DNA of 64,000 nucleotides. Origin: Minisyncoccota bacterium (GTDB taxonomy: Bacteria > Patescibacteriota > Minisyncoccia > Phycocordibacterales > UBA9973). This document shows, piece by piece, positions 13,406 through 64,000 of the stretch (the stretch's first letter is position 1; each line of letters begins with the position of its first letter). The stretch lies in contig JBAYLA010000004.1 in the NCBI GenBank assembly GCA_041664285.1, positions 3,171-67,170 on the forward strand, given 5' to 3'. Below the pieces are notes generated by a model. It saw only the letters and a list, made by a program, of their open reading frames with translations, did no database searches and was not told the DNA's origin. The position numbers were made by a program, and so were the translations under genes.

Positions 13406-14348
13406 GAGATACTATGCGATTATTTGATTTTTCTAAGACACAAAGTTCGCCAGCTTCAATATTACCCTTAAAATCAGCCATTGTATCGGCTAGCGCGTAT
13501 CCTAAAGAAAGTGACGAAGAATCAACTGCGTAAGAAGTCAAAATAACGAAAAGTGGTTTGTCGCTTAAAACTTTTCGTACTTGTAAAAGAAGCCTTGGGA
13601 GCATCTCCTCAATTTTCCATATTTCTCCTTTAGGTCCTCTGCCAAACTTAGGCGGATCCATGATAATTGCATCATATCTGTTCCCTCTTTTTTCTTCTCT
13701 CTCTAAAAATTTTAAAACGTCATCTTCTATTATCCGCATAGGTGCTTCAGCTAATTCAGTATTTAATTTTTGATTTTCTTTTGCCCAAGCTAAAGTTTGT
13801 TTCGAAGCATCTAAATGAGTAACTTCTGCACCAGCCCGCAGAGCAAAAAGACTTGCTACTCCGGTGTAACCAAATAAATTTAAAAACTTAAGCCCAGAAG
13901 AATAAGGAAAATTCTGTCCGTGTCGGAGCCCGCTTGCGGGTAAAGCGGCAGAATTTTCTTTATTCTTTAGGGCTTGCTTAATCTTATCCTCAATAAAATC
14001 CCAATGACTCGCCTGCTCTGGAAAAAATCCCAAATGTCGAAAAGGTGTCGGGGAAGCAAAAAATTTTATACCTTTGTATTCCATCTCCCATTTTGATTCT
14101 ATTTTTTTATCTATTTTCCAACCCGCTTTTGCTCCAACTTTGGAACTCCAAAATTTTCCGTTTGCTTTTGCCCACTTCTCTTTCATTTCTATAGCCTTTG
14201 GCCATACGGCATCTTCGTATGGACGCACAAAAATATATTTGCCGAATCTTTCTAGCTTCTCCCCTGCACCCGTATCCAAGAGTTCATACCCTATCTTGTC
14301 CAGAGCAGAGCTAAGCGACCAATCTTTTGAATAAAAAAGTTTTATCAT
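13365..14348 (-). CDS. Class I SAM-dependent RNA methyltransferase, RlmI/RlmK-like
   Basis: Rossmann SAM-binding motif LNLFGYTGVASLFAL and a DPPKF catalytic motif (IIMDPPKFGRG), typical of RlmI-type rRNA methyltransferases. Confidence 0.6.
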   Translation of the reverse strand: MIKLFYSKDWSLSSALDKIGYELLDTGAGEKLERFGKYIFVRPYEDAVWPKAIEMKEKWAKANGKFWSSKVGAKAGWKIDKKIESKWEMEYKGIKFFASPTPFRHLGFFPEQASHWDFIEDKIKQALKNKENSAALPASGLRHGQNFPYSSGLKFLNLFGYTGVASLFALRAGAEVTHLDASKQTLAWAKENQKLNTELAEAPMRIIEDDVLKFLEREEKRGNRYDAIIMDPPKFGRGPKGEIWKIEEMLPRLLLQVRKVLSDKPLFVILTSYAVDSSSLSLGYALADTMADFKGNIEAGELCVLEKSNNRIVSLANTAVWSRDMVQ

Positions 14349-25660: not shown

Positions 25661-27628
25661 ATGTTAAAAAAAACAAGACTCTCTTTTTCTTCTCTTAAAA
25701 TTGACGAAAAAGACAAAAAGGAAAATAAAATGCCTGCTCATAATGCACCACATGGTTATGCTAAAGGATCTGCCCGCCATTCGGCAGGCGGGGAATACAA
25801 GAAAAAAATAACTAAAAGTTCTACTTATCAATACACCCAAAAAAGATTTGGGAAAAATTCTCCTGCTCGCCCATTTGGAGGAAAAAACCAATATAAAATT
25901 TCAAGCGGTAAAATACCACCTCCGGAAAAAGGAGTAATTCGCATTATTCCACTCGGTGGAGTAGAAGAAATTGGTAAAAATATGACCGCCATAGAAATAG
26001 GTAATGATATTATCGTGGTAGACGCTGGAATGCATTTTTCAAACGAAGCAACTCCCGGAGTTGATTACGTTATTCCAAATACAACTTATCTAGAAGAACG
26101 CAAAGATAAAATACGTGCATTAATAATTACTCATGGACACCTAGACCATATCGGAGGTGTGCCACTAGTCCTTTCTCGCATAGGTAATCCTCCTGTATAT
26201 TCGAGGAATATTTCTATTCTTTTAATAAAAAAACGTCAAGATGAATTTCCTCACCTTCCGCCACTAAAAGCAATAACAATAGAAAAAGATGGAACAATAA
26301 TGTGTGGTGAAACTAAAGTTAGATTTTTTGGTGTTACTCACACTATTCCTGATGCGCTTGGTATTATTATTGAAACAAATAACGGCTGGATTGTAACTCC
26401 AGGAGACTACAAGCTTGATCAAATTGATGGAATTGTTTCCAAAGAAGAAGAAAAGGAATATTCTATCTTTGACAAAGCAAAGGTACTTCTCTTAATGACA
26501 GATTCTACTAATATTGAAAATGAAGGATTTTCATTGCCGGAGATAAAAGTACATCAGGGATTAGAGAATTTAATTAAGAAAATTCCGGGACGAATAATTA
26601 TTGCAGCTTTCTCTTCATCAATTACCCGTCTAGCTTTTATGGTTAAGACAGCAGAAGCAATAGGAAAAAAAGTGGCAATTGATGGACGCTCAATGAAAAC
26701 AAATATGGATGTGGCTATTGAAGCAGGATTCTTTGCTCCCAAAAAAGGCACTATTATACCATTAGAAGAAGCAAGTAATTATCCTCCAAATAAAATGGTA
26801 ATTCTTATGACTGGAGCACAAGGGGAAGAATTTGCTTCACTTAATCGAGCAGCAAATAAATCACACAAAAAATTCTCTCTTCAAAAAGGAGATACAATTA
26901 TTCTTTCCTCATCTATCGTTCCTGGCAATGAACTTCAGGTTCAGAAAATGAAAGATGGTTTATCTCGCCAAGGTGTAAAAGTTATCAGTTACAGAACAAC
27001 TGGAGAGGATTTTGTACATGCAACAGGACACGGCAACCAAGAAGACATTAAATGGCTTCATAAAAAAACACATCCAAAATTTTTTATACCAATTCATGGA
27101 CACCATTCTTTTCTTGTAAAACATAAAGAGTTAGCAATAGAATGGGGTATGTCTGAAGAAAATATTATTGTCCCAGACAATGGCTCAATCATTGAGATAT
27201 CAGCTGATGGTAGAAAAATGACCATGAGAAAAGAACAAGCCCCAAGTGGTGCCATGCTAGTAGATGGAACCTCTATCAGTGATACTCAAGATGTAGTTAT
27301 CCGAGATCGTCAAATGCTTTCACAAGATGGAATGTTTGTCGTTATTGCCCTCCTTGATCAAAAAACTGGAAAATTAAAAAAATCTCCAGATTTAATTTCA
27401 CGTGGTTTCGTTTATTTAAAAGAAAATCAAGAACTTTTGCGTCAAGTAAGAATAATTATTAAAAATGGAGTAGAAAACTTTACCACTAAAATGCCAACTT
27501 CTTCTCATGGTGAAAAGATGGTAGACCTTGATATGATCAAAGCAAATTTAGGAGAAAGTATTTCAAAATTCTTATATCAAAAAACAGCCAAAAGACCTTT
27601 AGTAATACCTGTCATCTTGAGCGTCTAA
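25661..27628 (+). CDS. rnj: Ribonuclease J, with a basic N-terminal extension of about 95 aa
   Basis: Metallo-beta-lactamase HxHxDH motif (ITHGHLDHIGG), beta-CASP and C-terminal domains. N-terminal K/G/R-rich extension. Confidence 0.85.
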   Translation: MLKKTRLSFSSLKIDEKDKKENKMPAHNAPHGYAKGSARHSAGGEYKKKITKSSTYQYTQKRFGKNSPARPFGGKNQYKISSGKIPPPEKGVIRIIPLGGVEEIGKNMTAIEIGNDIIVVDAGMHFSNEATPGVDYVIPNTTYLEERKDKIRALIITHGHLDHIGGVPLVLSRIGNPPVYSRNISILLIKKRQDEFPHLPPLKAITIEKDGTIMCGETKVRFFGVTHTIPDALGIIIETNNGWIVTPGDYKLDQIDGIVSKEEEKEYSIFDKAKVLLLMTDSTNIENEGFSLPEIKVHQGLENLIKKIPGRIIIAAFSSSITRLAFMVKTAEAIGKKVAIDGRSMKTNMDVAIEAGFFAPKKGTIIPLEEASNYPPNKMVILMTGAQGEEFASLNRAANKSHKKFSLQKGDTIILSSSIVPGNELQVQKMKDGLSRQGVKVISYRTTGEDFVHATGHGNQEDIKWLHKKTHPKFFIPIHGHHSFLVKHKELAIEWGMSEENIIVPDNGSIIEISADGRKMTMRKEQAPSGAMLVDGTSISDTQDVVIRDRQMLSQDGMFVVIALLDQKTGKLKKSPDLISRGFVYLKENQELLRQVRIIIKNGVENFTTKMPTSSHGEKMVDLDMIKANLGESISKFLYQKTAKRPLVIPVILSV

Positions 27629-27632
27629 AAAA

Positions 27633-28796
27633 ATGAATTTAAAATTCAAACATTCATTTAAGTTTCTATATTACATAAGTTTTATTTTTTCAATCCAATA
27701 CGCCTTAGTGGTGTATGTAAACTCTAGTTTTCTAGAAATTAAAATTGGAGAAAGTTTGATTGGTATCGTCTTCACTATTGCTTCTTTTTTAAGTATTTTT
27801 GCTCTACTCCAAATTACTCATTTGTTAAATCGCCTAGGAAATTACAAATCTTCCATATTAATAATATTAGCTAATGTTGCTTCCCTCTTTTTAATGGGCT
27901 TCGGAAAATCAATTTTTTTAATTATTTTAGGATTCATTCTTTATAACATCACTAATTATTCTTTAATGTTTTCAAGAGATGTTTTTATTGAAGATGTAGC
28001 TGACCATAAAGCTATGGGTAAAACTCGTGGATTATTCCTTACTATTAGCAACATTGCTTGGGTTTTTGCTCCAATTATTTCAGGATTTATTATTACACGA
28101 TTTTCCTATTCCGGAGTTTATATTCTAGCAGCCCTTGTTTCTCTATCCTCAATATTTTTAATTTTTTCTTCTTTTAATAAATTTAGGGATCCAAAATATA
28201 GTAAAATTTCTTTACTTGAAACTTTTAAAAAAATCCTTGGAGATAAAAATTTAAAAAAAATTTTTGCTTCCGAATTTCTTTTACGTTTTTTTTATTCTTG
28301 GATGATAATCTATACTCCTATTTATTTACGCGAATATTTAAATTTTAGCTGGAGTGAAATTGGAATAATTTTCACTATAATGCTTATTCCTTTTGTAATA
28401 TTAGATTACCCATTAGGAATTTTGTCAGATAAAATTGGTGAAAAGAAAATATTGACTTTGGGTTTTTCTGTAATGGTTATTGCAACAATTTTAATGTTTT
28501 TTATTACAACATCAAATATTTTTATCTGGGGAATAATTTTATTTGCCACTCGAGTTGGAGCAGCTACAGTAGAAGTGATGAACGAAAGTTATTTTTTTAA
28601 AAAAATTAATTCCAGTGACACTGAACTAATCAGCTTTTTCCGAAACGCTTTCCCTGCATCATTAGTCATTTCACCCATTTTAGCCACAATCTTACTTGGT
28701 TTTTTAAGTCACCAATATCTCTTTCTTATTTTAGGACTAATATTAACGATAGGAATATATTTAAGTCTAACCTTAAGAGAAATTATCCATTCTTAA
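27633..28796 (+). CDS. MFS transporter
   Basis: 387 aa, 12 predicted TM segments, MFS-like loop between TM2 and TM3. Confidence 0.55.
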   Translation: MNLKFKHSFKFLYYISFIFSIQYALVVYVNSSFLEIKIGESLIGIVFTIASFLSIFALLQITHLLNRLGNYKSSILIILANVASLFLMGFGKSIFLIILGFILYNITNYSLMFSRDVFIEDVADHKAMGKTRGLFLTISNIAWVFAPIISGFIITRFSYSGVYILAALVSLSSIFLIFSSFNKFRDPKYSKISLLETFKKILGDKNLKKIFASEFLLRFFYSWMIIYTPIYLREYLNFSWSEIGIIFTIMLIPFVILDYPLGILSDKIGEKKILTLGFSVMVIATILMFFITTSNIFIWGIILFATRVGAATVEVMNESYFFKKINSSDTELISFFRNAFPASLVISPILATILLGFLSHQYLFLILGLILTIGIYLSLTLREIIHS

Positions 28797-30104
28797 ATAC
28801 CCTTTTAGAAACTCTTCCTTGAATTCAAAAAAGTTGTCGTTTAAAATTGATTGCCTAATTTTTTTTACTAAGTTAACAATAAAATATAAATTATGAATGG
28901 AAGCTAATGTCCCCGCTAGCATTTCTTTCCCGTGAAAAAGGTGAGCGATGTAGGCGCGAGAATAATTCTGACAAGAATAACATTCGCAATCTTTTTCAAT
29001 CGGAGAAAAATCATTTCGATATTTTGTATTCATTATAATTATTTTTCCATTTTTAGTATAAATAGTTCCATTTCTGCCGAGACGAGTGGGTGCCACACAA
29101 TCAAAAAGATCTACTCCATTTTCAACCCCCATAAATAAATCCTCTGGTTCCCCAATGCCAAGCAAGTGACGAGGTTTTTCTTCCGGTAAAATTTCATTGA
29201 CCCATTTTACCGCAGTAGACATGTCCTCTTTCGCAAAACTTCCACCAATCCCAAAACCATCAAAATATTTTCCATCTACATTTATTTCTGAAATAATTTT
29301 TGCAGATTTCTTTCTTAAGCTCTCTTCCCTACCTCCTTGCACAATACCGAATAGCACAGGAGAAAAATCAGAAACATACTCGGGCGAACGGTCGACGTTG
29401 CGTAGCAGGAGATCCTGAGAACGAGTTTGTTTCTGATTTAATAGTTTTTGATGTTCTTCTAAACTCCTCTGCGCCCATCTGTGCGTCCTCTCTAATGCTT
29501 CTTCTTGATATTTTAAATCTTCACTCGGAGAAGTACATTCATCAAAAGCAAAAATTATATCTGCTCCAAGGTTGTGTTGAATCTGAATTGATTTTTCTGG
29601 AGTAATATAATGAATAGAACCATCTAAGTGTGATTTAAAAGAAACGCCGTCTTGTCCAATCTTCGCCAAACGAGGAGCATCACTATCATCAAAACGTTCT
29701 GGAATTAATAATGATGGGTCAGTAATTTTTGAAAGATGAATCAACTTAGAAATATCTTTTCCAAAAGCAGCCCCTAGTGAAAATACTTGAAAACCCCCAG
29801 AATCAGTCATGGTGGGACCCTTCCAATTCATAAATTTACCAATACCTCCAGCATCACGCACAATTTCATCTCCAGGCTGTAAATACAAATGATAGGTATT
29901 ACCAAGCACCACTTGGGTACCAGCGTCTTTCACCTGCTCGGGATTTAAAGATTTTACAGTAGCCTTGGTTCCTACTGCCACAAAAGCTGGAGTCAAAATA
30001 TCTCCATGAGAAGTCTGCAAAACCCCCACTCTGCCCAGATATTTTTTTCCGCCAGAGGCGGATCCGCCCTTGGCGGAAATTCTTTTTTCTATTTTAAATT
30101 GCAT
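28773..30104 (-). CDS. tgt: Queuine tRNA-ribosyltransferase (tRNA-guanine transglycosylase)
   Basis: LQTSHGDILTPAFVAVGT, GGFQVFSLG, FAFDECTS, the LFGIVQGG motif and zinc site CxCxxC (CECYSC)...H. The start ATG overlaps the mreC stop (TAATG), supporting start 30104. About 60 aa longer than typical Tgt because of two apparent insertions (see findings). Confidence 0.85.
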   Translation of the reverse strand: MQFKIEKRISAKGGSASGGKKYLGRVGVLQTSHGDILTPAFVAVGTKATVKSLNPEQVKDAGTQVVLGNTYHLYLQPGDEIVRDAGGIGKFMNWKGPTMTDSGGFQVFSLGAAFGKDISKLIHLSKITDPSLLIPERFDDSDAPRLAKIGQDGVSFKSHLDGSIHYITPEKSIQIQHNLGADIIFAFDECTSPSEDLKYQEEALERTHRWAQRSLEEHQKLLNQKQTRSQDLLLRNVDRSPEYVSDFSPVLFGIVQGGREESLRKKSAKIISEINVDGKYFDGFGIGGSFAKEDMSTAVKWVNEILPEEKPRHLLGIGEPEDLFMGVENGVDLFDCVAPTRLGRNGTIYTKNGKIIIMNTKYRNDFSPIEKDCECYSCQNYSRAYIAHLFHGKEMLAGTLASIHNLYFIVNLVKKIRQSILNDNFFEFKEEFLKGYLRMDNFS

Positions 30105-37381: not shown

Positions 37382-37666
37382 TTACATCTTTTGATCTGTA
37401 TTTTCTGCTGCACAACAAGTAGCCTGTGCCTCCTTACACTTTTTACAACAGCAACCAAAGATCTTCATAATGGCGGCAAGACCTACAAGCACATAAATAA
37501 TAGCTTCAACAATGGGAAGAGAACCAAAAATTATATTTACAACATTCCAATTACCATTCATTATCATTCCAACCCCAACTAAGCCCCAATTCAAACCTCC
37601 TATAATCAATAATATATTGGCAATCGTATTCCCAATACAACATCCTCTACATTTTGTATTAAACAT
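37382..37666 (-). CDS. DUF378-like small membrane protein with a Cys-rich C-terminus
   Basis: LIIGGLNWGLVG motif typical of DUF378. Tail GCCCKKCKEAQATCCAAE. Confidence 0.5.
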   Translation of the reverse strand: MFNTKCRGCCIGNTIANILLIIGGLNWGLVGVGMIMNGNWNVVNIIFGSLPIVEAIIYVLVGLAAIMKIFGCCCKKCKEAQATCCAAENTDQKM

Positions 37667-37792
37667 ATATTTTTAAAAAATTTCAGCCAGAGGCTGATCC
37701 GCCTTTGGCGGAAAATTATTAATAATACACTTAGTATAGCATATTTATAAAATATGATATACTGAAACATATTATTAATAATTATAAAAAAT

Positions 37793-48556: not shown

Positions 48557-49210
48557 TTACTTCTTCTTCCACTCTTCAATCTTCTTATGATTTCCAGAAA
48601 GTAAAACTTTTGGAACTTTGTAATTTTTGCCCTTATATTTCAAAACTTCCGGACGAGTGTAGACTTCACTACTTGAGACACGCTCTTCTTCTAAAGATTC
48701 ATATTTACCAAGCACCCCAGGAATTTGACGAGAGATAGAATCAATGAGAACCATCGCTGGAAGTTCCCCACCAGTCAGTACATAATCCCCTATTGAAAAC
48801 TTTTTAGTTTTTAGAATTTTATCTATCCGCGCATCTATTCCTTCATATCTTCCACAAATTAAAATAATATCTGTATACTTTTTGGAAAATGTTTTAGCAA
48901 AATTAGTAGTGAATTTTGGAGCACTTGGAATAAAATTAATGATTAGAATTTTTCGGCTCTTGCCCTTCGCGATGCTCAGGACCTTCGCCACTGCCTTTAA
49001 TAGTGGTTCGGCTCGCATCACCATTCCTGGACCTCCGCCGTAAGGTTTGTCATCGACAGGCTTATAATTGTTTTTGGGTGCTTTTATAAAATCTCTTGGA
49101 TTATAAAATTTTACAGAAATAATTTTATTTTTTATTGCTCGGCCAATAATAGATTCATTTAAATATGAATCAAAAATATCAGGAAAAATTGTAATTATAT
49201 GAAAACGCAT
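48557..49210 (-). CDS. trmD: tRNA (guanine37-N1)-methyltransferase TrmD
   Basis: MRFHIITIFPDIF....SPOUT knot motifs (ICGRYEGIDAR, VLTGGELPAMV). Confidence 0.85.
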   Translation of the reverse strand: MRFHIITIFPDIFDSYLNESIIGRAIKNKIISVKFYNPRDFIKAPKNNYKPVDDKPYGGGPGMVMRAEPLLKAVAKVLSIAKGKSRKILIINFIPSAPKFTTNFAKTFSKKYTDIILICGRYEGIDARIDKILKTKKFSIGDYVLTGGELPAMVLIDSISRQIPGVLGKYESLEEERVSSSEVYTRPEVLKYKGKNYKVPKVLLSGNHKKIEEWKKK

Positions 49211-61291: not shown

Positions 61292-63406
<2,115 letters not shown>

Positions 63407-63413
63407 TCAAATT

Positions 63414-64000
63414 TTATCTCACTTGCCAACCAACCCCATTAGTCTTTTTATCCTTGATTTTATTGGTTATTTGGGTCATAATGTCGTTTACTTCTTGGTC
63501 TGTTAAAGTCCTTTCAAATGACTGAAAAACTAGCCGAAAAGCGTAAGAAATTTGATTCCCTTTTTTAAACTCATCGAATAGTTCTGGACCCTTAATTATC
63601 ATATTCCCCATATTTTCTTTGATTATTTTAGCAACATCTTCATTTATTACTCCTTCAGGCACCCATACTGCTACATCACGCGCAATAAAAGGAAACAGAG
63701 ACCACATTTTGAAAGCTGCGCCTGTGTGCTTTTGTAAATGGTCGACGTTGCGAAGCATGAGATCCTGGTCAAAAGTATCAGATTCGGCTTTCTTGTAAAA
63801 TTCATCGAGGCTCATTTCTTTAATTTCTTTTTTATCTCCATAAGCCACATGCATTTCTTCTTTGTCTTTTTTGAACACTGTTCCAATTTCAAAAATCTTT
63901 ATCTCGTTCATCCCCAGCAAAGGAGCGTTTAATTGGTTTAATTTCAAACTTTCTTTTAGACCATCAGTTAAATTCGTTCTTAAAAATTTTTTGTCTGAAG
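63414..64000 (-). CDS. pheT: Phenylalanyl-tRNA synthetase beta subunit, C-terminal fragment; the gene continues past the window end
   Basis: C-terminal FDX-ACB domain FPFIARDVAVWVPEGV....ELFDEFKKGNQISYAFRLVFQSFERTLTDQEV. The reading frame stays open upstream of the TTG at 63945-63947 to position 64000, so the apparent start in the ORF track is an artefact of the window edge. Confidence 0.75.
   Translation of the reverse strand, partial: SDKKFLRTNLTDGLKESLKLNQLNAPLLGMNEIKIFEIGTVFKKDKEEMHVAYGDKKEIKEMSLDEFYKKAESDTFDQDLMLRNVDHLQKHTGAAFKMWSLFPFIARDVAVWVPEGVINEDVAKIIKENMGNMIIKGPELFDEFKKGNQISYAFRLVFQSFERTLTDQEVNDIMTQITNKIKDKKTNGVGWQVR

Follow-up and report, generated by a model that had tools for sequence, protein, structure and literature searches.

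A 30-nt palindromic double-hairpin sequence in tgt and in a DUF378 leader of a Minisyncoccota bacterium is probably a very small element found across bacterial phyla

A 64,000-nt stretch of DNA from a Minisyncoccota bacterium (contig JBAYLA010000004.1, positions 3,171 to 67,170 of the forward strand; hereafter the window) raises the question of why nearly the same short, GC-rich sequence lies both inside tgt, the gene of queuine tRNA-ribosyltransferase, and in the intergenic region before a gene for a DUF378 membrane protein. The first-pass annotation of this DNA, made from the sequence alone, had offered two answers: a small selfish or structured repeat that tolerates in-frame insertion in the manner of the Rickettsia palindromic elements (RPEs), or a conserved cis-regulatory hairpin. 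We give a probability of about 0.62 to the view that both sites carry a very small palindromic element of the kind of repetitive extragenic palindromic (REP) sequences, small dispersed repeats (SDRs) and RPEs, mobile now or formerly, and translated where it lies inside open reading frames (ORFs).

The two 28-mers (30049..30076 and 37684..37711) lie on the + strand in the same orientation and differ, as annotated, at three positions: positions 2 and 12, which form one base pair (C-G in copy 1, A-T in copy 2), and one loop base. A search of the window allowing up to three mismatches returned these two copies only, and 100 shuffled sequences returned none; a covariance model run over the whole window with filters off recovered the same two copies only, at 57-60 bits, the next match scoring 8.8 bits. 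The GC content is 79% in copy 1 and 68% in copy 2, compared to 34% in the window, in agreement with the earlier estimate of more than 65%. By its protein matches, the window belongs to Patescibacteria (Nomurabacteria/Paceibacterota). On the minus strand, from which both host genes are read, copy 1 with one further base on each side (30048..30077; 57.2 bits on the + strand and 55.4 on the minus strand) reads TCC GCC AAG GGC GGA followed by TCC GCC TCT GGC GGA. It encodes SAKGGSASGG at exactly codons 10-19 of tgt, where AKGGSASGG had been placed at approximately these codons. Copy 2 (37683..37712, minus strand; 60.1 bits) reads T CCGCC AAA GGCGG A followed by T CAGCC TCT GGCTG A, with the compensated A-T variant in one of its hairpins.

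Using the pattern CNGCCNNNGGCNGATCCGCCNNNGGCGG (20 specified bases), we scanned species-representative genomes (GTDB, one per species) and found at least 120 loci; by hand arithmetic, about one match would be expected at uniform base composition. An independent pattern scan of metagenomes gave at least 120 loci, and 14 viral contigs carried genuine copies; five of the genome matches, all from organisms of high GC content (Anaeromyxobacter, Bordetella, Streptomyces, Luteolibacter), appear to be due to chance. Among the genome matches listed, the record labels cover about 15 phyla: many Patescibacteria classes, Saccharibacteria, Kiritimatiellae, Verrucomicrobiota, Lentisphaerae, Planctomycetales, Omnitrophota, Ignavibacteria, Bacteroidota, Zixibacteria, Elusimicrobia, Firestonebacteria, Thermodesulfobacteriota, uncultured Gammaproteobacteria, Firmicutes and Chloroflexota. 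No cyanobacterial record was among the 120 genome loci listed. Some bins (metagenome-assembled genomes, MAGs) are possibly contaminated; as a minimum, the spread across phyla is secure, because copies are present on long contigs, one of 1.63 Mb from Ignavibacteriota (CAWHAG010000001.1) and several of 0.5-0.9 Mb from Patescibacteria. The 1.19-Mb chromosome OY970181.1 is another carrier.

Conservation extends beyond the bases specified in the search. In 119 copies, T was found at position -1 in 95% and A at position +29 in 100%, so that the conserved unit is 30 nt (T, the 28-mer and A), or two adjacent palindromic 15-mers of the form TCNGCC-NNN-GGCNGA. Because the flanking T and A are conserved, the stems are 6 bp long rather than 5 bp as annotated. 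The flanks of these copies are further biased, being T-rich from -4 to -2 and carrying A at +31 in 82%. At the loop edges, also outside the pattern, loop 1 ends in A in 93% and loop 2 begins with T in 94%. With loop 1 as NNA and loop 2 as TNN, the unit is two-fold symmetric; either strand, as DNA or RNA, would therefore show the same structure, and the relevant molecule may be single-stranded DNA, cruciform DNA or RNA.

The stems covary. Among 121 distinct copies of the genome set, the one stem pair not fixed by the pattern was Watson-Crick or wobble paired in 116 (CG in 67, AU in 42, UA in 5, GC and UG in one each) and unpaired in 5. In the metagenome scan, whose pattern left all four free stem positions as A or T, 241 of 242 hairpins were Watson-Crick paired, against 50% expected without constraint. 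A relaxed search of the loci also turned up compensated changes at other stem positions (CCTCC/GGAGG and GCGCC/GGCGC). The 5-6 bp hairpin potential of each half is kept through compensatory changes, and the whole has the form of a short (20-40 nt) inverted doublet, with two palindromes of 13-15 nt making up the 30-nt symmetric unit. The minimum-energy RNA fold of copy 1 is a single long hairpin (-24.2 kcal/mol) and not two short ones, while that of copy 2 (minus strand) is a double hairpin (-17.9). Across the family, the sequences favour two local hairpins as the conserved fold, because 52 copies with one variant hairpin break the whole-element hairpin but keep the local pairs, and because the loops are not mirror images past the edge A and T (28/253 observed versus 30.6 expected). 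The long hairpin was rejected as the conserved fold on these grounds. The tandem hairpins of the first-pass annotation are upheld by covariation, with the exceptions of their stem length and the predicted fold of copy 1.

That the unit was inserted is indicated by orthologous sites. tgt (28773..30104, minus strand; 443 aa; PF01702, E = 6e-134) starts with an ATG that overlaps the stop codon of mreC (PF04085) by one base, as had been noticed. About 100 of 120 Tgt orthologues (73-85% identity) read KKL-K(N/G)S-LGR with nothing in between, and nine read KKL-SA(K/R)GGSASGG-K.., like the query. One further orthologue (P0052) has a single 15-nt unit (SAKGG), and several have a shorter SKGEAGKTY, plausibly a decayed copy to judge from its DNA, which retains the GC-rich codons GGC, GCC and GGY. 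Filled and empty sites (an empty example is L122) differ in DNA by exactly 30 nt, between (C/T)TA and AA(G/A), and their comparison revealed no target duplication. The segment had been suspected to be foreign to canonical Tgt; the orthologue alignment shows an insertion and not an ancestral part of this lineage. Alignment with Tgt entries in PDB (E = 1e-92) begins at residue 23, directly after the insert, as does that with the solved Tgt of Z. mobilis. We take the insert position to be the turn of the N-terminal beta-hairpin in that structure. Copy 1 would then merely add a Gly/Ser/Ala loop to a surface turn, and its effect on Tgt is probably neutral. Similarly, FolD of a Saccharibacteria MAG compared to PDB 3p2o has an exact 10-residue gap at the decapeptide.

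The DUF378 gene (37382..37666, minus strand; 94 aa; PF04070, E = 3e-13) provides a second such site. Copy 2 was correctly assigned to the divergent intergenic region upstream of this gene, with a DsbA-like gene opposite, and ends 17 nt before the ATG. Because promoter-like sites are found upstream on the minus strand, it probably lies within the 5' leader of the DUF378 mRNA. Among orthologous leaders, copy 2 is missing in L122 and present in L265 (position 502), where the same canonical-plus-variant hairpins occur with a different loop and the flanks have diverged. A possible AATTT duplication at copy 2 is not reliable in low-complexity, AT-rich sequence. Across orthologous sites, the element appears as a precise 30-nt block without clear target duplication, usually between T-rich and A-rich flanks. 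Hairpin 2 of copy 2 together with the following AATTTTTT has a terminator-like score for the minus strand, but L265 has lost the T-run in its orthologous copy, so that a conserved attenuator is unlikely here. An intrinsic terminator as the identity of the family was rejected because on either strand the consensus runs from a T-run through the hairpins to an A-run, opposite to the order in a terminator. A stable double hairpin in the leader could nevertheless have a modest influence on transcript stability or read-through. The suggestion of a conserved, locus-specific cis-regulatory hairpin found no support.

About 4 in 10 copies of the genome set are inside long ORFs (52/127; 54/117 in a second tabulation). 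Canonical copies in ORFs (n = 36) were found in frames 0, 1 and 2 in the ratio 33/1/2. Frame 0, the sole frame without stops, is TCC GCC NNN GGC GGA twice, giving S-A-x-G-G-S-A-x-G-G, and because each 15-mer is palindromic, the same peptide pattern results in either orientation. The CAGCC/GGCTG variant produces TGA in frame 0; copies with a non-canonical hairpin, mostly of this type, were coding in 18/52 cases, compared to 36/65 for canonical copies (Fisher p = 0.027). The frame bias and the lower coding share of stop-creating variants argue against splicing or bypass and suggest that the element is read through by ribosomes, adding a flexible decapeptide to surface loops. Host genes encode Mfd, UvrB, DnaG, DnaE and HsdR; an Asp/Lys/Asn-type tRNA synthetase and PheT (two copies); and CtpA, ArsA, FolD, PurA, an ABC-F ATPase and ribosomal protein L15. 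Three different proteins from three Ignavibacteria genomes (L057 6021-6050, L064 1446-1475 and L085 390-419) carry the element at the same position of the C-terminal sorting domain (PF18962) of the type IX secretion system (T9SS), between ..V.F and D.S.LASG.Y. The proposal of a small repeat tolerating in-frame insertion, likened to RPEs, is thereby supported; the likeness is functional and consists in the in-frame copies in housekeeping genes.

We infer mobility from presence and absence at orthologous sites; it was not observed directly. The element would be, or would have been, a non-autonomous mobile element of the REP/SDR kind, copied by a trans factor that acts on single-stranded hairpin DNA, for which the leading candidate, by analogy only, would be an HUH/Y1-type enzyme. 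Non-autonomous copying in trans fits best because the hairpins covary, the unit is a doublet, insertion is precise and without duplication, and no gene is linked to it. After insertion, the nucleotide sequence of the stems would be maintained, either because the hairpins are under selection or because copies are homogenised with one another. If this is true, one 30-bp sequence has made its way into loops of essential proteins (Tgt, UvrB, Mfd, DnaE, DnaG, aminoacyl-tRNA synthetases, L15, T9SS sorting domains) as well as intergenic DNA in very distant bacteria, as an unusually small and widespread element without a known enzyme. This would reopen the question, raised by SDRs, of how sequences of 20-30 nt move, and would present a natural case of nucleotide-level selection within coding sequence. 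The element could also be used to recognise insertions in the proteins of uncultured lineages, those of the candidate phyla radiation (CPR) among them, and it would explain the recurrent 'SAxGGSAxGG' decapeptides.

Several results weigh against a mobile element. Neither a transposition event nor two near-identical alleles, one filled and one empty, came to light. When 2803 ORFs from about 245 loci were clustered all against all, no family was present in more than 9 loci, and tblastn with a REP-associated tyrosine transposase (RAYT) against 124 loci gave matches in L121 and L072 only. The density in the window is 2 copies per 64 kb. The sameness of the stem sequence across phyla is unlike the lineage-specific REP and REPIN (REP doublet) families. 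The Tgt inserts raise further difficulties. In eight Tgt orthologues with the insert, the loop codons vary (AAG/AAA/AGA; TCT/TCA/TCG), yet Lys/Arg and Ser are encoded in every case, which points to a single old insertion and not to eight separate ones. In a neighbor-joining tree, carriers and non-carriers are interspersed, but this tree is star-like and poorly resolved and cannot separate an old insertion with losses or recombination from reinsertion at a hot spot; with one old insertion, the scatter would require repeated precise loss or recombination. Finally, when the eight stem codons were compared with flanking codons of the same amino acids, synonymous third positions were identical in 210/217 cases (97%) for the stems and 399/896 (45%) for the flanks, a degree of conservation in place that exceeds the expectation for a purely selfish relic and is the main finding left unexplained by such a model. 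The third-codon-position GC content (GC3) was 0.73 in stem codons and 0.34 in flanks. Either way, whether through selection on hairpins or homogenisation with other copies, the stems appear to be held at the nucleotide level, and the Tgt copy, which looks old and is conserved in place, may have a function beyond selfish persistence.

A wider form of the mobile-element reading, which we regard as doubtful, takes the sequence for a pan-bacterial 30-bp mobile unit present in more than 10 phyla and some phages, spread by a widely distributed trans-acting copier and subject to purifying selection even in essential genes. The copier would be either an enzyme specific for hairpins in single-stranded DNA or a process of templated repair or copying, and the hairpins, if this is true, would have a cellular role beyond selfish persistence.

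The same conservation could be read without movement. The 30-mer would then be mainly a functional genome-wide cis-element, a hairpin or cruciform recognition site for a conserved protein or RNase comparable to the proposed roles of REPs or uptake sequences, with selection at each site and with mobility secondary or extinct. The contrast between stem and flanking codons in the eight diverged Tgt orthologues, with their drifting loops, would be expected of such an element, as would the retention of copy 2 in the L265 DUF378 leader despite diverged flanks, the strict two-fold symmetry with its conserved loop-edge A and T, and the occurrence of one stem sequence in many phyla. The locations, however, appear arbitrary (loops in housekeeping proteins that have nothing in common, decayed tRNA fragments and heptamer arrays, for the last two of which see below); most tgt orthologues and one DUF378 leader are without the element and show no visible consequence; half copies and probably decayed copies exist; the window has a low density of copies; and no candidate binding protein is known, nor was one linked to the copies among the clustered ORFs. 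We consider this explanation unlikely and prefer a palindromic element that is or was mobile.

Selection at the protein level for a flexible Gly/Ser/Ala linker, with the hairpins as a by-product of codon choice, would account for the single frame of coding copies, for their small residues and for the S-A-K/R-G-G-S-A-S-G-G shared by all Tgt inserts. This explanation is already contradicted by the non-coding copies and by the conservation of synonymous sites: about half of the copies, copy 2 included, are outside long ORFs; CAGCC/GGCTG variants have a stop in that frame yet keep their pairing (241/242 metagenome hairpins); T/A flanks and loop-edge bases are conserved in non-coding copies as well; and the GC3 and synonymous identity of the stem codons are not explicable by amino-acid selection in a genome of 34% GC. 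We therefore regard it as very improbable.

Removal or skipping at the RNA level, by a mini-intron or by translational bypass as with mitochondrial 'byps' or T4 gene 60, would explain how the element can reside in essential genes and in tRNA-like sequence, several copies being inside tRNA D-arm sequence, and a GC-rich hairpin insert in an AT-rich genome recalls the mitochondrial byps and GC clusters. We give it hardly any credence, since the 33:1:2 frame bias and the scarcity of stop-creating variants in coding positions point to ribosomal reading, the length is an exact multiple of three, and the tRNA-like hosts are not restored to intact genes by in-silico removal. The D-arm copies (L245, L147, L217 and L018; also L150, L154, L172, L234, L236 and L254) can each be removed as exactly 30 nt to restore a canonical D-arm, but their hosts are 5' fragments or decayed duplicates, and in each case the tRNA in question follows as an intact copy 30-90 nt downstream. 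A tRNA mini-intron was rejected because ARAGORN found no intact tRNA after in-silico excision, except for one weak case. Chance resemblance or an assembly or adaptor artefact, suggested by the BamHI site (GGATCC) in the centre and by some matches near contig ends, is already refuted by the zero copies expected by chance in the window, by hundreds of copies in independent assemblies (the 1.63-Mb Ignavibacteriota contig included), many of them in frame in conserved genes, and by the conserved bases outside the search pattern.

The element was compared with known small repeats. Like REP, BIME and REPIN sequences, which are short (20-40 nt), GC-rich, imperfect palindromes, often in inverted doublets, thought to be non-autonomous, recognised as single-stranded hairpins and mobilised by RAYT (Y1 HUH) transposases, it is a small hairpin palindrome. 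Intragenic REPs have been reported particularly in replication and repair genes (PMC3733652, PMC3116915), and Mfd, UvrB, DnaG and DnaE are among the hosts of the 30-nt element. At one of their ends, REP super-families carry an unpaired tetranucleotide that is conserved as a tag, GTAG or CGTC (PMC3733652), whereas the flank profile of the 119 copies has no such tag at either end. In the loci examined, no RAYT gene flanked by the element was found. The RAYT-like Y1 transposase gene at L121 3203-3935 (PF01797; NF047646 below cut-off) has on either side a REP-like hairpin of its own, CTGCAAGG-caaga-CCTTGCAG, which is unrelated to the double-hairpin element; the RAYT-like gene of L072 has no flanking copy of the element or of any other hairpin that we could find; and the window has no RAYT gene. 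For the loci examined, a RAYT/REP link was rejected for these reasons. Ten annotated ORF families near copies included no transposase, the top ones being response regulators, T9SS proteins, ValRS, DnaX and enolase. In further contrast to REPs, whose families are lineage-specific and mostly extragenic, the element carries record labels of about 15 phyla, with 54/117 copies of the genome set in long ORFs, and its doublet of only 30 nt has no spacer. REP families reach tens to hundreds of copies per genome; of the 30-nt element, the window holds 2 copies in 64 kb.

RPEs are about 100-150 nt long, occur only in Rickettsia and have a CGTC tag at one end (PMC3733652). The 30-nt element resembles them in being a palindromic repeat found in frame in protein genes and translated as an extra surface peptide, and also present in non-coding regions and RNA genes; the 33:1:2 frames and the exact 10-residue inserts in Tgt and FolD correspond to the in-frame translated insertion known from RPEs. 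It differs in being 30 nt, untagged and in other phyla. The element lacks the tag and the lineage specificity that define a REP, as well as, in the loci examined, a RAYT gene flanked by it; from an RPE it is set apart by size, tag and host. Mitochondrial GC clusters, double-hairpin elements and repetitive hairpin-forming elements of fungi and sponges are presumed mobile, with no enzyme known (PMC2800124, PMC4478555). They are likewise GC-rich hairpin mini-elements scattered in AT-rich genomes, including within genes, but they are organellar and unrelated in sequence, and some are bypassed in translation, whereas the 30-nt element points to normal translation. What is notable in the 30-bp unit is the combination of cross-phylum identity, two-fold symmetry, a single-frame decapeptide and conservation in place.

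The SDRs of heterocystous cyanobacteria (Nostoc), as reportedly described by Elhai and colleagues, are 21-27 nt long and form hairpins with compensatory changes. They are said to insert precisely without target duplication and often to be embedded in tandem heptameric repeats. We know of no mobilising enzyme for SDRs, and to our knowledge they have been described only in cyanobacteria. By this description, the 30-nt element is likewise very small (its core of 28-30 nt is slightly larger), with covarying hairpins and flanks of period 7; unlike SDRs, it is a two-fold symmetric double hairpin, present across phyla and frequently translated in frame. The SDR paper (Elhai et al. 2008, Genome Res 18:1484) is cited in PMC3116915 and PMC4390886. 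No published description of the 30-nt element or match to its sequence was found in the literature, and as coverage of that search was partial, 'undescribed' is provisional. Searching Rfam at gathering score returned one tRNA only in the window, and around copy 2 there were chance-level matches at E up to 10.

The period-7 flanks were quantified by autocorrelation: values of at least 0.5 were found in the flanks of 21-26% of copies compared to 3.3% of controls (Mann-Whitney U test, p = 2e-5 and 4e-12). Tandem heptamers, for example gaagatt, gatattt and ggaaatt, abut or surround about a quarter of non-coding copies (e.g. L119, L097, L041, L072, L069 and L135); they may be a preferred target or may arise as a by-product of the hairpins. 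The element occurs occasionally as tandem or single units. The footprint of a larger element bounded by single hairpins was rejected, since solo hairpins are rare and pairs of them enclosing cargo were not seen.

In some places the element stands in a larger repeated context. On 17 contigs from soil metagenomes, it has one conserved surrounding, ccttgatcctgatgacggt[30-mer]gactggtgcggacc, in forward orientation in 12 (L141, L148, L177, L185, L194, L195, L197, L199, L213, L228, L250 and L256) and in reverse in five (L146, L156, L196, L198 and L205); there another element, mobile or repeated, probably encloses it. In L205, it adjoins sequence that, judged by eye, resembles the N-terminus of an IS110-type transposase. 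In a Kiritimatiellae MAG (L010, 4563-4810 and 6384-6572), it lies within an intergenic repeat of about 190 nt that also holds gtcattccgagcg-type sequence, and three more loci of the PVC (Planctomycetes-Verrucomicrobia-Chlamydiae) group have the common flank cataggaatttt[..]acaatccg.

Two further places in the window were considered as decayed copies. The weak covariance-model match at 13634-13667 encodes the DPPKF motif of a methyltransferase and was set aside as a chance match. A 71% GC stretch at 25765-25795, ggatctgcccgccattcggcaggcgggg, in a 658-aa ORF encodes the decapeptide-like AKGSARHSAGGEY; as it gave no match to the covariance model, it was likewise rejected as a copy.

Other GC-rich mini-inserts are read in frame in the same lineage. 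A 31-nt repeat, 90% identical between tgt (29387-29417) and 63737-63767, encodes QDLLLRNVDR in tgt and QDLMLRNVDH in an unrelated 194-aa ORF; peptides related to QDLLLRNVDR are also found in some Tgt orthologues. In the tgt orthologues L121 (10001-11338) and L260 (902-2227), a Y-shaped palindrome of about 75-87 nt with 61-66% GC is inserted in frame. It folds as an outer stem around two hairpins (-38 to -40 kcal/mol) and encodes GSLS..ALPLGSSACETP, which is present in many Tgt orthologues and, in P0024, at a different site. In addition, a short dispersed repeat, CCTTCGC..TGCTCAGGACCTTCG, occurs inside ORFs at 48964-48987, 61524-61547 and 61557-61580, with 92% identity between two of the copies. 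In view of these inserts, the double-hairpin 30-mer is the smallest and most widespread representative of a broader habit of these genomes.

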